64,000 nt of DNA from an uncultured Actinomycetes bacterium (GCA_963703275.1 OY969804.1:3601259-3665258); one strand, 5' to 3'. Positions 5,353 through 29,524 are shown, numbered from the stretch's first letter. The notes: generated by a model from the sequence alone, not told the origin. Made by a program: numbers and translations.

Positions 5353-6243
5353 ATGAGTGTTTTGGAAGAGCTTCAGCAGGCGACCGCCACCGCGGTCGCG
5401 CAGGCCGGGCCAACGGTGGTCGGGTTGCGGTTCGGGTGGCGGCCGGCGTCGGGCGTCGTGATCGCGACCGACCGCGTGCTCACCTGCGCCCACTCGGTGC
5501 GCGGCGACGCGGTGACGGCGGTGTTCGATGACGGGCGCCGCGTCCAGGGCCGGCCGGCGGCGGTCGATGCCGCCGGTGACCTGGCGGTGGTCGAGGTCGA
5601 GACGGGCACTGCGCCCGCGATCTCGTGGGAGCGGCCCGAACCGCAGCTCGGCACGCCGGTGTTCGCACTGGCCCGGCTCGGCGACGGCGGCCTGCGTGCG
5701 ACCGCGGGCGCGGTCTCGGCGCTTGACCGTTCGTTCCGGGGCCCGCGTGGCCGCCGCATCGCAGGCTCGGTCGAGCACACCGCGGCGGTCGCCCGCGGCT
5801 CCGCCGGCGGGCCGCTGGTGGATGCGAACGGCGGGCTGCTGGGCGTGAACACCATCCGCCTGGACGGCGGCCTGGTGCTCGCGCTCGCCGCCGACTCCGA
5901 CCTGCGCGCGCGCGCGGAGGCGCTGGCGCGGGGCGAGGCGCCCGTCCGCCGCAGCCTGGGAGTGGCCGTCGTTTCGAGCCGCGCCGCCCGCAGGATGCGC
6001 CGCGCAGTCGGTCTGGGGGAGCGCGATGGGTTGCTGGTGCGCGAGGTGCAGCCTTCCGGCCCGGCGGCGGGTGCCGGGGTCGAGCCGGGCGACCTGATCG
6101 TGGCCGCCGCCGGCCGGCCGGTGGCGTCCGTCGACGACCTCTACGCGGCGCTCGACGCGGTCGCCGACGGTGCCGGGCTGCCCCTCGCCCTCGTCCGCGG
6201 CGAGAGCGAGCGCGAGGTCGTCGTCACGCCGGTCGAGGCGTGA
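5353..6243 (+). CDS. S1C (HtrA-like) protease-fold protein with PDZ domain; catalytic Ser apparently replaced by Ala
   Basis: TCAH (His), GDLAV (Asp), RGSAGGPL where GNSGG is expected; PDZ GPAAGAGVEPGD; SD GAGG before ATG 5353. Confidence 0.85.
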   Translation: MSVLEELQQATATAVAQAGPTVVGLRFGWRPASGVVIATDRVLTCAHSVRGDAVTAVFDDGRRVQGRPAAVDAAGDLAVVEVETGTAPAISWERPEPQLGTPVFALARLGDGGLRATAGAVSALDRSFRGPRGRRIAGSVEHTAAVARGSAGGPLVDANGGLLGVNTIRLDGGLVLALAADSDLRARAEALARGEAPVRRSLGVAVVSSRAARRMRRAVGLGERDGLLVREVQPSGPAAGAGVEPGDLIVAAAGRPVASVDDLYAALDAVADGAGLPLALVRGESEREVVVTPVEA

Positions 6244-7255: not shown

Positions 7256-8245
7256 ATGGACACGATCCGACTCGAGCCGGTCGACAGCATCCGGATCACG
7301 ATCCTGATGGACAACGTGACCGACCCTCTGCTCTTTCCGGCCGAGCACGTCGAGCGCACGACCTGGCTGCACCAGCTGGCACCCGGGGTGGCACGTGTCA
7401 CGTCGGCCGTCACAGAGGACGGCCTGCCCGACGCGCTCATCGCCCAGCCCGGCTTCTCGGCGCTCGTTCGCGTCACGACCGCGGGCCGCGCGCGGACGAT
7501 CCTGTTCGATGCGGGTGTCACCCCCAGGGGTGTGGTCGAGAACATGCGCCGGCTCGGGCTTTCGCTCCGGGACATCGAGACGATCGTGCTCAGCCACGGC
7601 CACTGGGACCACGTCGCCGGAATGGAGGGGATCGCGGGCGAGCTGGGGCGAGCCGGCCTGCCCGTGCTCATCCACCCCGCCTTCTGGCGCCGCCGCCGGA
7701 TCGCGTTCCCCGGCCTCGAGCCGGGCGAGCTGCCCAGCACGAGCCGCTCCGCGCTCGAGGGCGCCGGCTTCGAGATCGTGGAAGAGCGGGCGCCCTCGTT
7801 CCTGCTCGACGGATCGGTGCTCGTGACGGGCGAGGTCGATCGCACGTCGGAATTCGAGACCGGCTTCCGCGGCCACGAGGCGCACGTGCACGGGAGCTGG
7901 GAGCCCGACCCGCTGATCCTCGACGACCAGGCGCTCGTGATGCGGCTGGCGGGTCGCGGCCTGGTCGTGCTCACCGGCTGCGGGCACTCCGGCATCGTCA
8001 ACGTGGTGACGTATGCCCGGCGGCTCACGGGCGAGCCGCGAGTCGCCGCGGTGATCGGCGGATTCCACCTCAGCGGCCCGATGTTCGAGCCGGTCATCGA
8101 GCCCACGGTCGCCGCCTTCGACGACCTGGCCCCCGAGCTTCTGATGCCGGCCCACTGCACCGGGTGGAAAGCGGTGCACCGTCTGGCCGCCCGCTTCCCC
8201 GGCGCATTCGTCCAGAGCGCCGTGGGGACGACCATCGTGCTCTGA
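7256..8245 (+). CDS. MBL-fold metallo-hydrolase
   Basis: SHGHWDH, TGCGHSG, GGFHL, PAHCTG motifs. Confidence 0.9.
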   Translation: MDTIRLEPVDSIRITILMDNVTDPLLFPAEHVERTTWLHQLAPGVARVTSAVTEDGLPDALIAQPGFSALVRVTTAGRARTILFDAGVTPRGVVENMRRLGLSLRDIETIVLSHGHWDHVAGMEGIAGELGRAGLPVLIHPAFWRRRRIAFPGLEPGELPSTSRSALEGAGFEIVEERAPSFLLDGSVLVTGEVDRTSEFETGFRGHEAHVHGSWEPDPLILDDQALVMRLAGRGLVVLTGCGHSGIVNVVTYARRLTGEPRVAAVIGGFHLSGPMFEPVIEPTVAAFDDLAPELLMPAHCTGWKAVHRLAARFPGAFVQSAVGTTIVL

Positions 8246-25703: not shown

Positions 25704-26453
25704 ATGGACGCGATGACCGGATCCGGCCGGATCGAGGTGCGAAGCGTCGTCGACCAGGTCTATGCAGCCGTGCGCGCCCGGATCCTGGCCGGCGATCTGC
25801 CCCCCGGCGGCCGGCTGCGGCAGGAGGAGCTCGCGGCCGACCTCGGGGTCAGCCGCACGCCCCTGCGCGAGGCGCTGCGCAGGCTCGCCAGCGAGGGTCT
25901 GGTCGAGTTCCACCCCAACCGGGGTGCGACCGTCGCGGGCGACGACGACACGACCCTGTGGCACGCCTGGTCGGCCCGGGTCGCGATCGAGCCCGGCGCC
26001 GCGCGCCTGGCCGCACAGGTGTGCGATCCCGACGCGATCGAGCGGCTGCGCTCCCTCGTCGCCGACCAGCGGGCGCGCGTCCGCGACGGCCGCGACACCT
26101 ACGACGCCAACCGCGACTTCCACCTGGGGCTGGTGGCGGCGTCGGGCAACCCGCACCTGCTCCGGTTCGCCGAGACCCTGTGGGTGGCCCGGATCGCACG
26201 CCGGATCTACGCCGCCCAGGCGGTCGACCCCCGGCGCGTGCTCTACTGGGCGGACGACCACGACCGCATCGTCGACGCGGTCGCGGCGGGCGACGGCAAC
26301 CTGGCCGCGCTGCTCACCCGCGAGCACATCGCGGCCTCGCCCCCGCCGAGCACGGACGTCGTCGATGCGTCAGGTCAGCTCGGCCGGGAGCTCAAAGCTG
26401 ACGACGGTGCCACACCCGGGGGCCGACCGGACCTCGACGCTGCCGCCGGCTAG
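25704..26453 (+). CDS. GntR (FadR/FCD) family regulator; 3' end overlaps the convergent gene
   Basis: LRQEELAADLGVSRTPLREAL HTH; FCD NRDFH...H..I...H; start may instead be GTG 25695. Confidence 0.9.
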   Translation: MDAMTGSGRIEVRSVVDQVYAAVRARILAGDLPPGGRLRQEELAADLGVSRTPLREALRRLASEGLVEFHPNRGATVAGDDDTTLWHAWSARVAIEPGAARLAAQVCDPDAIERLRSLVADQRARVRDGRDTYDANRDFHLGLVAASGNPHLLRFAETLWVARIARRIYAAQAVDPRRVLYWADDHDRIVDAVAAGDGNLAALLTREHIAASPPPSTDVVDASGQLGRELKADDGATPGGRPDLDAAAG

Positions 26454-28469
26454 GCGCAGCCGCTCGCGCATCGCGTCCAAGCCCATGCGCCGCTGGCGGC
26501 GGCTGCGCTCGAGCGCGTCGGCGACCTCGAACCCGCGGCCATCGTCGGCCACACGTCCGCGCAGGAGCCCGTCGCTCAGCGTGATCTCGACCTCGAGCGC
26601 GGTCGCGCGGGCGTGCTTGCGGACGTTCACGATCGCCTCGCGCACCGTGCGGTAGGCGATCTCCTCGACCACGTACGGGTGCCGCTGGTCGGCCACCGTC
26701 ACCGAGACCGAGAGCGCGGCCTCCTCGCCGGCCTGGTCGGCCAGGTCGCGCAGCGCACCCGCGAGCCCCTCCTGATGCAGGCTGGTGGGGCGGAGTTCGA
26801 ACATCAGCCGGCGGGTGCGATCGGTCGCTGCGGCCAGCGTGCCGCGGGTGGCGGTGACGACCGACGCGATCCGGTCGCGCCCCGCCGTCTCGACCGTCTG
26901 CTCCAGGCGGTCGAGGGCGACCAGGCACGCGGTCAGAACCTGCACCGTGTCGTCGTGGAGCTCGGCGGCCAGCCGCCGCCGCTCCTGCTCCTCGGCGCGC
27001 AGCAGCCGCTCCATCGCGTGGCGGCGCTCGAGCTCGCTCTGGCGGATGTCGCGCTCGAGCTGCAGGCACCGCTCCTCGAGGCGCGCCAACTCGCCGTCGA
27101 GTGGCGGCGGGACCACGCCCGACGTTTCGTCAATGCGACCTGCCACAGGTCCTGACGATGGTTCGGCCACACCCCTGTCGACCGCGCCGAGTCCGCTCCA
27201 GAGCGCGTCGAGTGCCGCCGGGAGGTTCCCCGCGCGCTGCTCGACGAGCGCCAGCACCTGGTTCGCCTCGGCGACATAGTGGGGTGCGGCGGTGTGCTCG
27301 AGCAGGTCGATTGCACTCCGGCACAGGAAGCGCGCCTCGTCCAGATCGCCGTCATGGAGCGCGGCCCGGGCGAGCACCAGCGTTGCGCTGCCGGCCACGC
27401 CCGGCTCGGTTGCGCCGGTCTCGGCCAGCGCCCGACGGGCGGCCTCGCGCGCGCCCTCGACGTCGCCGGCCAGAAGCGCTGCCCGGCCGCGGTCGGCACT
27501 GAGCGTGGCCAGCTCGGGCGTCGCGCCCGCGGCCTGCATCAGCTCACCCGCAAGCTCCAGATGCTGCTCGGCCTCGCCCGGCCGGCGCTGGTCGACCATG
27601 ATCCCGCCGAGCACGGCGTGGGCGCGGCCCAGAAGCAGCGTGTGCTCGGCCTGTTCGAGCTGCGCCACGACCTCTCCCATGTAGCGCTCCGCCAGCCGCA
27701 GCCGGCCCTGCTCGGCGTAGGTTCGCGCCATCGCCCACAGCACGCGAGTCCGCGCGACCGGGTCGGTGATGGCGGCCTCGACGTCGAGCACGTCTGCCAG
27801 CACCGCCTCGGCGTCGGCGAATCTGCCCTGGTCGGTGTAGGCGCTCGCGAGGTACACGCCGAACCGGATGACCCCGCGCACGTCAACCGGCGGCCGGCGC
27901 GTTTCTTCCAGCGCAGCGCGGAGCACCGAGATCGCGCGGCTGAGGTCGCCGATGCCGGCGTACGCGCGCCCGAGCGACTCGTAGAGCCCCGGGCGCAGTC
28001 GCGCGGTCGCAGACGGCTCGAGCGCGCGGGCCTCCTCGAGCAGTGCGACGGCGTGTTCGTCGTCGCGGGCCTCGATCGCGAGCTGGCCGAGCCCCTCGAC
28101 GGCCCGGCTGTGTGCGTGCAGGTCGCCGCACGTCCGGGCCTCGTCGGCCAGCGCGAGCAGTGTCTCGGCCGCGTCCTCTGCGCCCATCCGCACGGCCATC
28201 TCGGCCAGACCGATCCTGGCGGGGGCGATCGCGCCCCCATCGGCTCGGCCCGCCAGCTCGGCGACTGTGACCCCGAGCCGGCGGGCGAGCTCCGCCAGTA
28301 TGCGCGGCGATGGCACGCGCTCCCCGGCCTCGATGCGGCAGACGTATGCCGCCGAGCATCCGGGGAAAGCGAGCTGGATCATCGACAGCCCGCGCTCGGC
28401 TCGCACCGTACGCAGCCTCCGGCCCAGGGAAGCGGGATCGTCGACGTGCGTCGGTGCAGGGCGGCCCAC
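26370..28469 (-). CDS. XRE-HTH + TPR-repeat + HisKA_3/HATPase histidine kinase fusion protein
   Basis: N-terminal LGRRLRTVRAERGLS..L...SAAYVCRIEAGERVPS; ~370 aa Ala/Leu-rich helical repeats; C-terminal RRRLAAELHD, EAIVNVRKHA, DDGRGF, MGLDAMRER. Confidence 0.85.
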   Translation of the reverse strand: MGRPAPTHVDDPASLGRRLRTVRAERGLSMIQLAFPGCSAAYVCRIEAGERVPSPRILAELARRLGVTVAELAGRADGGAIAPARIGLAEMAVRMGAEDAAETLLALADEARTCGDLHAHSRAVEGLGQLAIEARDDEHAVALLEEARALEPSATARLRPGLYESLGRAYAGIGDLSRAISVLRAALEETRRPPVDVRGVIRFGVYLASAYTDQGRFADAEAVLADVLDVEAAITDPVARTRVLWAMARTYAEQGRLRLAERYMGEVVAQLEQAEHTLLLGRAHAVLGGIMVDQRRPGEAEQHLELAGELMQAAGATPELATLSADRGRAALLAGDVEGAREAARRALAETGATEPGVAGSATLVLARAALHDGDLDEARFLCRSAIDLLEHTAAPHYVAEANQVLALVEQRAGNLPAALDALWSGLGAVDRGVAEPSSGPVAGRIDETSGVVPPPLDGELARLEERCLQLERDIRQSELERRHAMERLLRAEEQERRRLAAELHDDTVQVLTACLVALDRLEQTVETAGRDRIASVVTATRGTLAAATDRTRRLMFELRPTSLHQEGLAGALRDLADQAGEEAALSVSVTVADQRHPYVVEEIAYRTVREAIVNVRKHARATALEVEITLSDGLLRGRVADDGRGFEVADALERSRRQRRMGLDAMRERLRLAGGSVEVRSAPGCGTVVSFELPAELT

Positions 28470-28476
28470 GGCGGAG

Positions 28477-28541
28477 AGCTTACCCTGTTACACGCGTTTT
28501 GTCGATGTCAATTGACGGAATGCCCCGTAGTTCTGTACCGT
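28477..28541. promoter_or_regulatory. Back-to-back promoters with central palindrome GTCAATTGAC
   Basis: Minus strand: TCGACA(28505-28500)-N17-TAAGCT(28482-28477), 7 nt to GTG. Plus strand: TTGACG(28512-28517)-N18-TACCGT(28536-28541). Palindrome at 28507-28516. Confidence 0.65.
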
Positions 28542-28586
28542 GTACCGCTCCCCGTCCGAAGGTCCACGCGAACAAGGAGCGCCAAG

Positions 28587-28613
28587 ATGTACGCCGGCAG
28601 GCTCTGGCCGTAA
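28587..28613 (+). CDS. Putative 8-aa micropeptide MYAGRLWP
   Basis: AAGGAG SD (28574-28579) 7 nt before ATG; own promoter upstream; hairpin downstream. Confidence 0.55.
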   Translation: MYAGRLWP

Positions 28614-28669
28614 TCAAGCAGTGACGTCCGGCGCCGCGGTCGCGTGACCAGCAGGCGCGGCGAGACCTG

Positions 28670-28695
28670 GAGCCGCGGCGGGCAGGCCGCGGCTC
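28670..28695. terminator. Hairpin between micropeptide ORF and convergent FAH gene
   Basis: 10-bp perfect stem GAGCCGCGGC/GCCGCGGCTC, 6-nt loop. Confidence 0.6.
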
Positions 28696-29524
28696 AGGGC
28701 TCGAACGCGACCGGGTTTCGGAGCGTGCCGACGCCCTCGACCCACACCTCGCACACGTCGCCGTCGCGCAGGTACCGCGGTGGCGTGCGGGAGTCGCCAA
28801 CGCCGCCCGGGGTGCCGGTGGCGATCACGTCGCCGGGCTCGAGCGTCATTCCCGCCGAGCAGTAGACGATCAGCTCGACGATCGAGAAGATCAGGTTTGC
28901 GGTCGTCGAGTCCTGCAGCACCTCGCCCGAGACGGTCGTCCGCAGGCCGATCGAGTCGAGGTCGACGCCGTCGGCCGCCCCGACGCATGGCCCCATCGGC
29001 GAGAAGGTGTCGAAGCTCTTGCCCAGCGTGAACTGGCGTAGCGGCGTGTCGAACTGGGCCCGGCGGCCCGAGACATCGTTCACCGCGGTCAGGCCTCCGA
29101 CCGCCGCCCGCGCGGCTGCGGCGTCGGCGCGGTAGGTGCGGCGGCCGATCACCACGCCGACCTCGCCCTCGTAGTCGGGCCGCGTCTCCTCGCGCGGAAC
29201 GACGATCGTCGCGCCGGGGCTGGTGACCGCCGAGCCGAACTTGGCGAACACCACGGGGACCTCGGGGATCGCGAGCTGGGACTCCGCCGCGTGGTCGCGG
29301 TAGTTGAGGCCGATGCCTATCAGCTTGCGCGGGACGACGGGATGCTGCAGCGAGACGGCGGCGAGTGCGACGGACGCCCCCGAGGCGTTCGCGATCTGGG
29401 CCCAGGCCTCCGGCGAGGCATCGAAGCCGGTGGCACCGGCGGGGCCGGCGTCTACCACGTGGTCGTCCTCGAGCCGGCCAATCCGGGCGTCTCCGCCGTC
29501 CTTGGTGTAGCGGACGGCCCTCAT
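28694..29524 (-). CDS. Fumarylacetoacetate hydrolase family protein
   Basis: IGLNYRDH, DYEGE, NDVS, GKSFDTF, GDVIATGTP. Confidence 0.93.
   Translation of the reverse strand: MRAVRYTKDGGDARIGRLEDDHVVDAGPAGATGFDASPEAWAQIANASGASVALAAVSLQHPVVPRKLIGIGLNYRDHAAESQLAIPEVPVVFAKFGSAVTSPGATIVVPREETRPDYEGEVGVVIGRRTYRADAAAARAAVGGLTAVNDVSGRRAQFDTPLRQFTLGKSFDTFSPMGPCVGAADGVDLDSIGLRTTVSGEVLQDSTTANLIFSIVELIVYCSAGMTLEPGDVIATGTPGGVGDSRTPPRYLRDGDVCEVWVEGVGTLRNPVAFEP

Follow-up and report, generated by a model that had tools for sequence, protein, structure and literature searches.

Can an open reading frame (ORF) of eight codons be the gene of a peptide signal, and can the regulator encoded divergently from it be the receptor of that signal? 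The question is raised by a locus in a stretch of 64,000 nucleotides (hereafter the window; GCA_963703275.1 OY969804.1:3601259-3665258) from an uncultured Actinomycetes bacterium of soil, whose genome is a single 3.79-Mb contig with a G+C content of 70.7%. On the plus strand at 28587..28613 the window reads ATG TAC GCC GGC AGG CTC TGG CCG TAA, which translates to MYAGRLWP plus a stop codon. Divergent from this 8-codon ORF, on the minus strand at 26370..28469, lies a regulator ORF of 699 aa (as assembled) with HTH_3, tetratricopeptide repeat (TPR), HisKA_3 and HATPase_c domains, and 117 bp separate the 8-codon ORF from the receptor start. An initial annotation of the locus had proposed a peptide-sensing circuit analogous to the RRNPP systems, which are peptide quorum-sensing systems of Firmicutes (Bacillota), and this proposal is supported here by the conservation of the ORF, by leader-bearing homologues of the peptide gene and by a pairing of small ORF and receptor at phylum level. 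We consider it reasonably probable that the ORF is translated and that its product is the cognate ligand of the divergent XRE-TPR receptor, the pair belonging to an RRNPP-like family of Actinomycetota. As judged from these sequences, the locus would best be read as an RRNPP-like pair of peptide and receptor in which the export leader has disappeared from the peptide gene.

We searched for the receptor in 60 related genomes and then read the spacers of the fetched loci. Of 30 fetched loci, 29 had the 8-codon ORF in the same position, and they represent 29 of the 31 genomes belonging to one Gaiellales genus. In the two remaining genomes, whose completeness is 79% and 59%, the locus is missing. 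Start codon, stop codon and length were unchanged in all 31 distinct sequences, which include those from the whole-collection scan described below. These sequences encode MYAGRLWP (14), MYGGRIWP (3), MYAGKLWP (2), MPGGKAWP (2) and MDGGKAWP (10), so that the general form of the peptide is M-x-[AG]-G-[KR]-[LIA]-W-P, with G4, W7 and P8 invariant, position 2 free and conservative replacements elsewhere (A/G, R/K, L/I/A). Synonymous variants were seen at Ala3 (GCC/GCA), Gly4 (GGC/GGA), Lys5 (AAG/AAA), Pro8 (CCG/CCC/CCT) and the stop codon (TAA/TAG). The ORF was gap-free in 29/29 aligned full-length rows, in an alignment whose 5′ untranslated region (UTR) and 3′ flank are rich in indels that are not multiples of three. 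The relatives fall into two clades (A and B), whose flanks can barely be aligned with each other and whose peptide is kept.

The combination of sequence elements was also specific. An AGGAG box followed by an ATG-initiated ORF of at most 14 codons (ATG, 3-12 codons, W-P-stop) occurs a single time in the 3.79-Mb window genome. In a 596-Gb collection covering 185,579 species, the pattern AGGAG-N5-9-ATGNNNGSNGGNARRNNNTGGCCNTAR matched 28 stretches, all of them from metagenome-assembled genomes (MAGs) labelled Gaiellales, Thermoleophilia, Actinomycetota or 'uncultured Actinomycetes', and nearly all identical to the genus loci recovered by the receptor search. By this pattern of substitutions and indels, the tiny ORF is a real, conserved gene, and the pattern is the signature of selection on the peptide and not on the DNA or RNA. 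Translation of the 8-codon gene is strongly suggested because of this conservation pattern.

It would be very improbable, in our view, that the 27 nt are unexpressed and represent either a protein-binding DNA element or the decaying remnant of a longer propeptide gene, kept by linkage in a young genus. This explanation draws on the fact that all 29 genomes belong to one genus and that many of the sequences are from close relatives; moreover, the second receptor paralogue of the window genome shows a decayed small ORF, so decay does happen. The two clades, however, differ at 8 of the 27 bases of the ORF, yet the ATG, the frame, the stop, the Shine-Dalgarno (SD) sequence and its spacing are kept in both. 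The changes are concentrated at third positions or conservative, and the indels that are so numerous in the flanks are absent from the ORF. A remnant, furthermore, would not keep its own SD and promoter boxes.

The elements of a small transcription unit that had been annotated around the ORF were all found on a re-check by script (28512-28695). The putative promoter of the peptide gene consists of TTGACG (28512-28517) and TACCGT (28536-28541) on the plus strand, separated by N18, with the transcription start inferred from them. Both hexamers correspond to conserved columns, TTGAC[GA] and TAC[CG]GT, in 29 aligned relatives, which upholds the annotated promoter; a generic sigma-70 scan, on the other hand, returned 0 sites and did not call it, the scan yielding one trivial terminator-like site on the minus strand. 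The sequence shows no in-frame start codon between the inferred transcription start and the 8-codon ATG. The SD sequence AAGGAG (28574-28579, plus strand) lies 7 nt 5′ of the ATG, and members of both clades retain an (A)AGGAG or GGAG box at a distance of 5-8 nt from the ATG. A plus-strand ORF at 27279..28613, antisense to the receptor gene, is in frame with the 8-codon ORF. On the minus strand, a putative receptor promoter (TCGACA 28500-28505, N17, TAAGCT 28477-28482) ends 7 nt before the GTG start of the receptor gene, which suggests that the receptor mRNA is probably leaderless; its boxes, TA[AT]GCT and TGTC[GC]A, are likewise conserved in the 29-row alignment.

Three structured RNA elements accompany these signals. 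An imperfect inverted repeat in the 5′ UTR (CGCTCC...GGAGCG; arms 28546-28558 and 28569-28581, plus strand) is 77% complementary, with conservation partly seen by eye, and might conceivably mask the SD. A first 3′ stem-loop region, with approximate limits 28626..28664 on the plus strand, appears in the consensus folds of both clades, though their sequences differ. It is followed at 28670..28695 by a GC hairpin with a 10-bp stem and a 6-nt loop that is invariant in clade A. The initial annotation had assigned this hairpin to the peptide gene; it is present, but sole ownership by the peptide unit is improbable, as its last bases overlap the stop codon (TCA 28694-28696) of a convergent FAA_hydrolase (FAH) gene. 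Because of this overlap, the hairpin is probably a terminator shared with the FAH gene. We also considered RNA structure as the conserved object at this locus and judged the evidence insufficient, with a fold z-score of -2.3 and few compensatory pairs in the consensus folds of the two clades (2/45 and 6/46).

These structures bear on an explanation by cis-acting regulation, in which the mini-ORF would be an arrest or attenuation leader of the TnaC kind (W-P-stop), or would be incidental to a small RNA of ~150 nt. In TnaC-type arrest leaders, a very short ORF contains a conserved W and ends with a P immediately followed by the stop codon, and a C-terminal Pro before a stop codon slows termination. 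The two stem-loops 3′ of the ORF in both clades and the imperfect SD-masking repeat in the 5′ UTR would fit such an explanation, as would a transcript that extends, in antisense orientation, into the 3′ end of the FAH gene. Nonetheless, we regard it as unlikely. Unlike in TnaC-type systems, there is no downstream co-directional gene here to be regulated; the weak fold score and scarce compensatory pairs given above speak against it, and an Rfam search over 28300-28800 returned 4 matches, all with E ≥4.6 and far below gathering scores. The RNA flanks diverge between the clades, whereas the peptide is kept. Finally, neither an arrest peptide nor a small RNA explains why the same tail motif ends 29-31-aa export-type genes beside paralogous receptors, the motif being common to the tails of what appear to be exported propeptides.

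These leader-bearing genes are found beside further receptor paralogues (~50% identity) carried by the genomes of the genus. Reading of 20 upstream regions of paralogues revealed divergent small ORFs ending ...AGKGWGP or ...AGKDWGP. In 61 genomes of the family, the pattern G-K-x-W-G-P-stop had seven matches in three genera, and 7/7 were divergent from a receptor paralogue (47-50% identity) located ~100-200 bp away. Examples of these propeptides, 29-31 aa in length, are MLRLRTISPSLLFAAAILISAWVGAGKGWGP, MRRIARSSLALLLLAAASAWLSAGKGWGP, MYRYIRPSVVLAIATLASAWVAAGKEWGP and MHRVMRPALLAAVTTVAAALVGSGKVWGP. They run from a basic start through a hydrophobic core and small residues to G-K-x-W-G-P, and M1, a basic residue, the hydrophobic core and the invariant G-K-x-W-G-P are common to all six that were aligned. 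According to the -3/-1 rule, the N-terminus would be a Sec-type signal peptide with an A-x-A-like cleavage site. The propeptides gave nothing below E 0.04 against Pfam and NCBIfam. When compared by eye, M-Y-A-G-R-L-W-P of the window lines up with the propeptide end A-G-K-G-W-G-P, the corresponding end of the 8-codon products being AGRLWP or GGKAWP, and the micro-ORF appears to encode essentially the propeptide tail alone. A class-wide search for the tail motif gave one match in 401 genomes, without a stop and without an adjoining receptor, in a sample that held only 3 genomes of the genus (the window genome included).

The pairing extends well beyond the family. Using an alignment profile of the receptor family, we identified full-length receptor homologues (E ≤1e-40) in 20 of 300 sampled Actinomycetota genomes, representing at least six families. 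Upstream of each receptor we looked for a divergent, SD-preceded ORF of 20-60 codons within 450 bp whose product has a basic residue close to its N-terminus, a hydrophobic stretch of 12 uncharged residues and a 3-16-residue tail with W or P. Such an ORF was found at 11 of 21 loci, by a definition written after these data had been seen, and at 0/21 when the same DNA was read on the receptor strand; among random 480-nt windows of the window genome, 2/4000 contained one. Five loci of this first set come from unpublished genomes, and 9/16 remain positive when these are omitted. Example tails are ...AGAANWPKH, ...AGAANWPHH, ...ASFPWNLPLP and ...DFPWPWPGS. With the definition fixed, 11 new loci of another family were then read, of which 9 carried such an ORF (0/11 on the other strand); their tails follow ...AG[AT]ANWP plus one to three residues, and their DNA shows synonymous differences. 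The comparison that the initial annotation had recommended, namely a scan of the divergent spacers of homologues for micro-ORFs with a conserved W motif, was therefore positive at the genus, paralogue and phylum levels. At one further locus (L111, genome G552), an SD-preceded divergent ORF of 16 codons, located 87 nt upstream of the receptor, is leaderless and ends ...GYPWG; judging by its sequence, it may be a second, independent leaderless case.

What kind of protein is the constant partner of these small genes? The XRE-TPR receptor proper comprises residues 1-438 (27156..28469, minus strand), with evidence from Pfam, from homology that starts at residue 1 and from an AlphaFold2 model. It contains an HTH_3 domain (PF01381; residues 19-72, 28254-28415, E 3.2e-7, above cut-off), followed by a TPR superhelix at ~27165-28223 (Pfam TPR_12, TPR_2 and TPR_MalT), in agreement with the divergent HTH-XRE plus TPR protein reported initially. 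Inspection of the sequence by eye gave no sign of a signal or transmembrane segment. The model of residues 1-438 had a mean pLDDT of 92.7 and a pTM of 0.79, and shows the helix-turn-helix followed by paired helices over residues 83-435. In Foldseek the best TM-scores were to the pheromone-bound Rap protein of phage phi3T (TMq 0.59-0.61), and the best E-values were to consensus TPRs and LGN. In VIA-align, Rap proteins reached Z 27.0-28.4 over 335-352 residues, NprR 25.1 and AimR ~22; the top row was APPBP2 with an RxxGP C-degron (PDB 8jal_B; Z 28.7, root-mean-square deviation 3.4 Å, 359 residues).

At the sequence level, the family profile matched PlcR collinearly over the HTH and TPR regions (E 4.4e-11) and NprR with E 5.7e-10, in a search in which consensus TPR and LGN outscored both. 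The single receptor sequence alone gave only marginal matches, and matches to ComR in the PDB span the HTH only. One receptor homologue carries the JGI label 'NprR'. An Rgg-specific family was not among the Pfam or NCBIfam matches of the receptor; Rgg-type receptors are ~280 aa long, and the protein here has 438 aa. Any relationship to the RopB/Rgg clan would be a distant one. As modelled, the architecture and overall superhelix match those of RRNPP receptors, in a resemblance that need not reflect descent.

We also predicted the co-fold of a paralogous receptor with its own 31-aa propeptide. The score was 0.56 (runs 0.60, 0.56 and 0.51), compared with 0.02 for the best of 3 controls; the runs agreed in ≥37% of contacts, and partner pLDDT was ≥34. 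The mark used here is reached by 58/80 solved complexes and by 2/110 mismatched pairs, and the range at or below 0.60 holds only 7 of the 80 solved complexes and both of the passing mismatches. This modelling lends weak support to binding within the paralogous pair, and the score may partly reflect memory of solved Rap-peptide and NprR-peptide structures. Considering the constant pairing among paralogues and across the phylum, the receptor fold and this weak co-fold pass together, a role of the 8-codon gene product as ligand of the neighbouring TPR receptor is supported.

In a quick maximum-likelihood tree of 41 receptors (SH-aLRT support, midpoint root), the Gaiellales family receptors grouped together with a support of 100. 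Within this family clade, receptors encoded next to leader-bearing genes (92; 3 genera) are sister to those encoded next to the 8-codon gene (84), the latter with two subclades (99 and 100). Outside the family clade are the phylum-level homologues, most of them with leader-bearing genes. Under the midpoint root, the simplest reading would be a single loss of the leader, on the same branch as the gain of a histidine kinase.

This kinase was the point at which the locus departed from its first description. The initial annotation had taken the regulator for a single XRE-TPR-kinase polypeptide, and this did not survive comparison with relatives, which have two genes; the fusion is confined to one genome and results from a 1-nt insertion. 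In 27/27 relatives that reach the junction, the receptor frame closes at a stop codon behind residue 436-444, and the kinase has its own gene (~260 aa), which starts a few bases on. A 98%-identical relative reads CCA TCG TAG, five bases, ATG GCA GGT CGC. Compared with it, the window contains an additional C (G at 27154 on the plus strand), by which TCG-TAG becomes TCG-TCA and the two frames are joined; the junction codon TCA (27153..27155, minus strand) thereby lacks the TAG stop found in the relatives. Among the 28 genomes reaching the junction, the fusion is seen in this genome only, and no fused receptor-kinase protein was found among the best 120 of 328 matches to residues 380-699 (proteins of 384-1224 aa), which are HisKA_3 kinases with ≤54% identity. 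From these comparisons, the usual arrangement appears to be a 438-aa receptor with a co-transcribed, sensor-less kinase, and the fusion in the window could be either a very recent natural (Rosetta-stone) event or an assembly indel error.

The kinase, a separate gene in relatives, occupies 26370..27146 on the minus strand, with an ancestral GTG start at 27144-27146. Its domains are HisKA_3 (PF07730; residues 496-564 of the fused ORF, E 3.8e-8) and HATPase_c (PF02518; residues 604-697, E 7.7e-12), with an H-box ELHDD at residue 505, and no NCBIfam equivalog reached its cut-off. It has no sensor domain, and its nearest long relatives mostly have PAS or GAF. The lack of a sensor domain and strict co-occurrence with the leaderless form are hints of a functional link between kinase and peptide. 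Could the peptide then be real but act on the kinase (as small proteins modulate HisKA_3 kinases) or on some other partner, with the receptor only controlling its transcription? The leaderless form and the kinase co-occur in both clades, no kinase homologue was found within 6 kb of six leader-bearing paralogous loci, and a kinase without its own sensor, among relatives that mostly have one, would suit such a role. We nevertheless find a target other than the TPR domain improbable: the tail motif is common to paralogous and distant systems without the kinase, and what stays constant in all of them is the receptor, which has the fold of the peptide-binding Rap and NprR; the paralogous co-fold also passed, if weakly (0.56 vs 0.02).

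Returning to a pair of peptide and TPR receptor, its working could be pictured as follows. The usual product of the family would be ~30 residues long, with a basic and hydrophobic leader and a short tail containing W and P. By analogy with known systems, the peptide of the family at large would be exported via its leader and trimmed, and would bind in the TPR groove after re-import, for which RRNPP systems use an Opp system. In the genus studied here, one receptor paralogue would have kept the tail only, as an 8-codon gene with its own promoter and SD, and the same paralogue would have become operonic with a sensor-less histidine kinase. The cytoplasmic peptide would then act inside the producing cell or leave it without a leader, as the RopB peptides do (PMC10518010); its polar character argues for action inside the producing cell. 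Bound in the TPR superhelix, the peptide might, speculatively, alter how the HTH holds the divergent promoter region, how active the partner kinase is, or both, and the kinase would pass the signal to a NarL-type regulator. More tentatively, and with somewhat less than an even chance in our estimation, the locus may be one member of an undescribed and widespread RRNPP-like family of Actinomycetota, defined by an NprR-sized receptor and a propeptide with a W-P tail, in which one Gaiellales duplicate lost the leader and gained a sensor-less kinase.

Several observations weigh against a peptide-receptor pair of this kind. No peptide transporter was found beside the 8-codon gene among the ORFs scanned at 18.9-34.5 kb, nor a response regulator of NarL/LuxR type among a subset of the ORFs in the same interval (the rest of the genome being outside the search). 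A co-directional target gene 3′ of the peptide gene is absent, the next gene being convergent in the window and in the relatives examined. Synteny with the FAH gene is likewise kept within the genus, so that genus-level linkage alone does not single out the receptor. At phylum level, the set of 11 new loci is the only clean replicate, and there is no recognisable small ORF at 10/21 loci (strict definition), nor at several paralogues of the genus; some of the negative phylum loci have plausible candidates with longer tails or weaker hydrophobic cores, and others show nothing. The window genome itself has a second receptor paralogue (50% identity; G000:C1 ~2527900-2528245; L059, L114), beside which no intact small ORF of the propeptide kind was found (2528246), only a degenerate one. 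The closest relatives of this paralogue (L089, L090) encode an intact 29-aa propeptide, and in the window genome only the leaderless system looks intact from the sequence.

Further points concern the protein and the peptide. The receptor is matched about equally well by generic TPR proteins (LGN and APC subunits with Z ~25; APPBP2 with 28.7) and by RRNPP receptors, and homology to RRNPP receptors is therefore not established. The co-fold is weak and comes from a paralogous and not from the window pair, and the hydrophobic leader could add to its score. A clear palindromic operator was not found in the window spacer, where the sole inverted repeat of ≥10 nt is the 5′-UTR pair. MYAGRLWP is not hydrophobic, unlike the published leaderless peptides, which makes its export doubtful. 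In addition, these organisms are uncultured and represented by MAGs.

Among described systems, the nearest is the RopB-LCP pair of Streptococcus and other Firmicutes (LCP, leaderless communication peptide; SIP), in which, according to the paper describing it, a 24-bp ORF for the mature 8-aa signal is divergent from the receptor gene; LCPs, mature peptides of 8-10 aa from ultrasmall ORFs, are reported there only for Firmicutes and as highly hydrophobic (PMC10518010). The system described here resembles it in having an ORF of 24-27 bp for a mature 8-residue peptide, with no leader or processing site and with its own promoter and ribosome-binding site, divergent from a cytoplasmic HTH_XRE plus TPR receptor. 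The lack of an export leader reported in the initial annotation stands, as the ORF has 8 codons only and is not a propeptide with a secretion signal, and the RopB leaderless peptides provide the precedent which that annotation did not name. There are also differences. RopB has ~280 aa and belongs to the Rgg/RopB clan, whereas the receptor here has ~438 aa and is NprR-sized. LCPs are aliphatic and hydrophobic, in contrast to a basic or glycine-rich peptide with a W-P end (MYAGRLWP and MDGGKAWP contain R or K, D and G, and are not highly hydrophobic). Unlike in RopB-LCP, there is no downstream target operon here, the receptor gene is operonic with a histidine kinase, and the phylum is Actinomycetota.

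Similarities to NprR-NprX, PlcR-PapR and Rap-Phr, of the RRNPP family of Bacillota, include an HTH_XRE domain, the N-terminal output domain of all RRNPP members but Rap, followed by a TPR superhelix of ~350 residues (the length class of NprR), and the small genes beside paralogues and distant homologues have, like PapR and NprX, an export-type N-terminus and an active-looking C-terminal tail. Rap and NprR are linked to two-component signalling, to which the locus studied here is likewise connected; the link to a phosphorelay would here run via the co-transcribed kinase and not by binding to Spo0F or ComA. In contrast to RRNPP systems, no sequence homology is established beyond generic TPR and HTH similarity, and the peptide gene is divergent and upstream instead of downstream and co-directional, with a leaderless peptide in the window. 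APPBP2 (PDB 8jal) offers a further parallel, given that its TPR superhelix holds a C-terminal ...GP peptide and that the paralogous peptides here end in K-x-W-G-P. As APPBP2 is a eukaryotic ubiquitin-ligase adaptor, unlike the receptor here, this is a structural analogy only, and on the models compared the parallel in C-terminal peptide capture is probably convergent.

In the literature consulted, receptor-plus-propeptide quorum sensing of the RRNPP type belongs to Firmicutes and their mobile elements. A survey of RRNPP systems looked for propeptides of 10-100 aa, covered Firmicutes and viruses only and notes that signals of Actinomycetota are typically small molecules (PMC10075063). For Streptomyces, the consulted part of a 2026 review mentions gamma-butyrolactones only (PMC13220807), and a paper on RRNPPA evolution, again as far as the portion consulted goes, frames the family as a Firmicutes one. 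In a literature search that left subscription journals and survey supplements outside its scope, we found no description of an RRNPP-like or TPR-receptor peptide system in Actinomycetota. If our interpretation is true, genetically encoded peptide signals, recognisable directly in genome sequences, are also used by a second phylum, one with many antibiotic producers and with abundant uncultured soil lineages, and synthetic peptides would be a handle to switch on silent pathways. With the window variant, the known kinds of leaderless 8-residue signal would rise to just two, and it would be the first of them tied to a histidine kinase, making communication between a TPR receptor and a kinase directly testable. 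On the more tentative reading of a widespread family, it would also represent a cell-to-cell signal turned into a ligand of 8 residues that is encoded in the genome, stays inside the cell and drives a two-component pathway. Such genes would then be missed by gene callers, and by RRNPP detectors that set a lower limit of 10 aa.

The spacers of the locus and of its paralogues contain further sequence features. An apparent symmetry at ~28500-28517 in the window was considered as an operator and is explained by the two back-to-back -35 boxes. At the -35 of the peptide promoter, most clade-A relatives (e.g., L004 and L012) carry the 10-11-mer (A)TTGACGAAAC, which recurs a short way into the kinase gene from its 5′ end, on the receptor strand (window 27117-27146, minus strand); from its sequence, this repeat may serve as a common binding site or as an internal promoter, or may be due to chance. 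The paralogue spacers contain strong TTGCCA-N2-4-TGGCAA palindromes, often two per spacer (seen by eye, with one 10-nt pair computed), which are candidate operators (L087 ~5900-6000; L089 ~7300-7400; L092 ~5870-5960). The window spacer has nothing as clear.

At two leader-bearing loci of one paralogue subgroup, an MFS_3 transporter annotated as 'transmembrane secretion effector' (L087 4441-5679 and L088 5211-5900, both minus strand) comes after the propeptide gene, and in one genome (G003; L087 7299-8999, plus strand) the receptor gene is followed by an SBP_bac_5 oligopeptide-binding protein. By their annotation, these are candidate export and import partners. The window genome encodes 15 SBP_bac_5 proteins above cut-off, none of which adjoins the receptor locus. 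Four other paralogues (L070, L071, L076 and L078) directly follow the stop of an upstream gene on the same strand; this type lacks a divergent spacer and hence also a peptide gene such as that described here. A kinase-like part follows a paralogue of comparable identity in other genomes, where matches extend to query residue 566-574.

The surroundings of the locus in the window are metabolic. The convergent next gene of the initial annotation is the FAH gene (Pfam FAA_hydrolase; 28694..29524, minus strand), and the other neighbours encode a GntR/FCD regulator, an amino-acid permease, an acyl-CoA dehydrogenase, an MFS transporter, a CMD-family protein, a second FAH, an acetoacetate decarboxylase and an aldehyde dehydrogenase. 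In one relative (L022, genome G011), an extra ORF of 160 aa lies between the micro-ORF terminator and the FAH gene, 153-632 nt 3′ of the micro-ORF; this insertion disturbs the FAH side, and the micro-ORF therefore stays with the receptor there. Another genome (G022) has two whole clade-B loci, each with micro-ORF, receptor and kinase, at C11:23911-25218 and C2:1049985-1051292 (L021 and L046).

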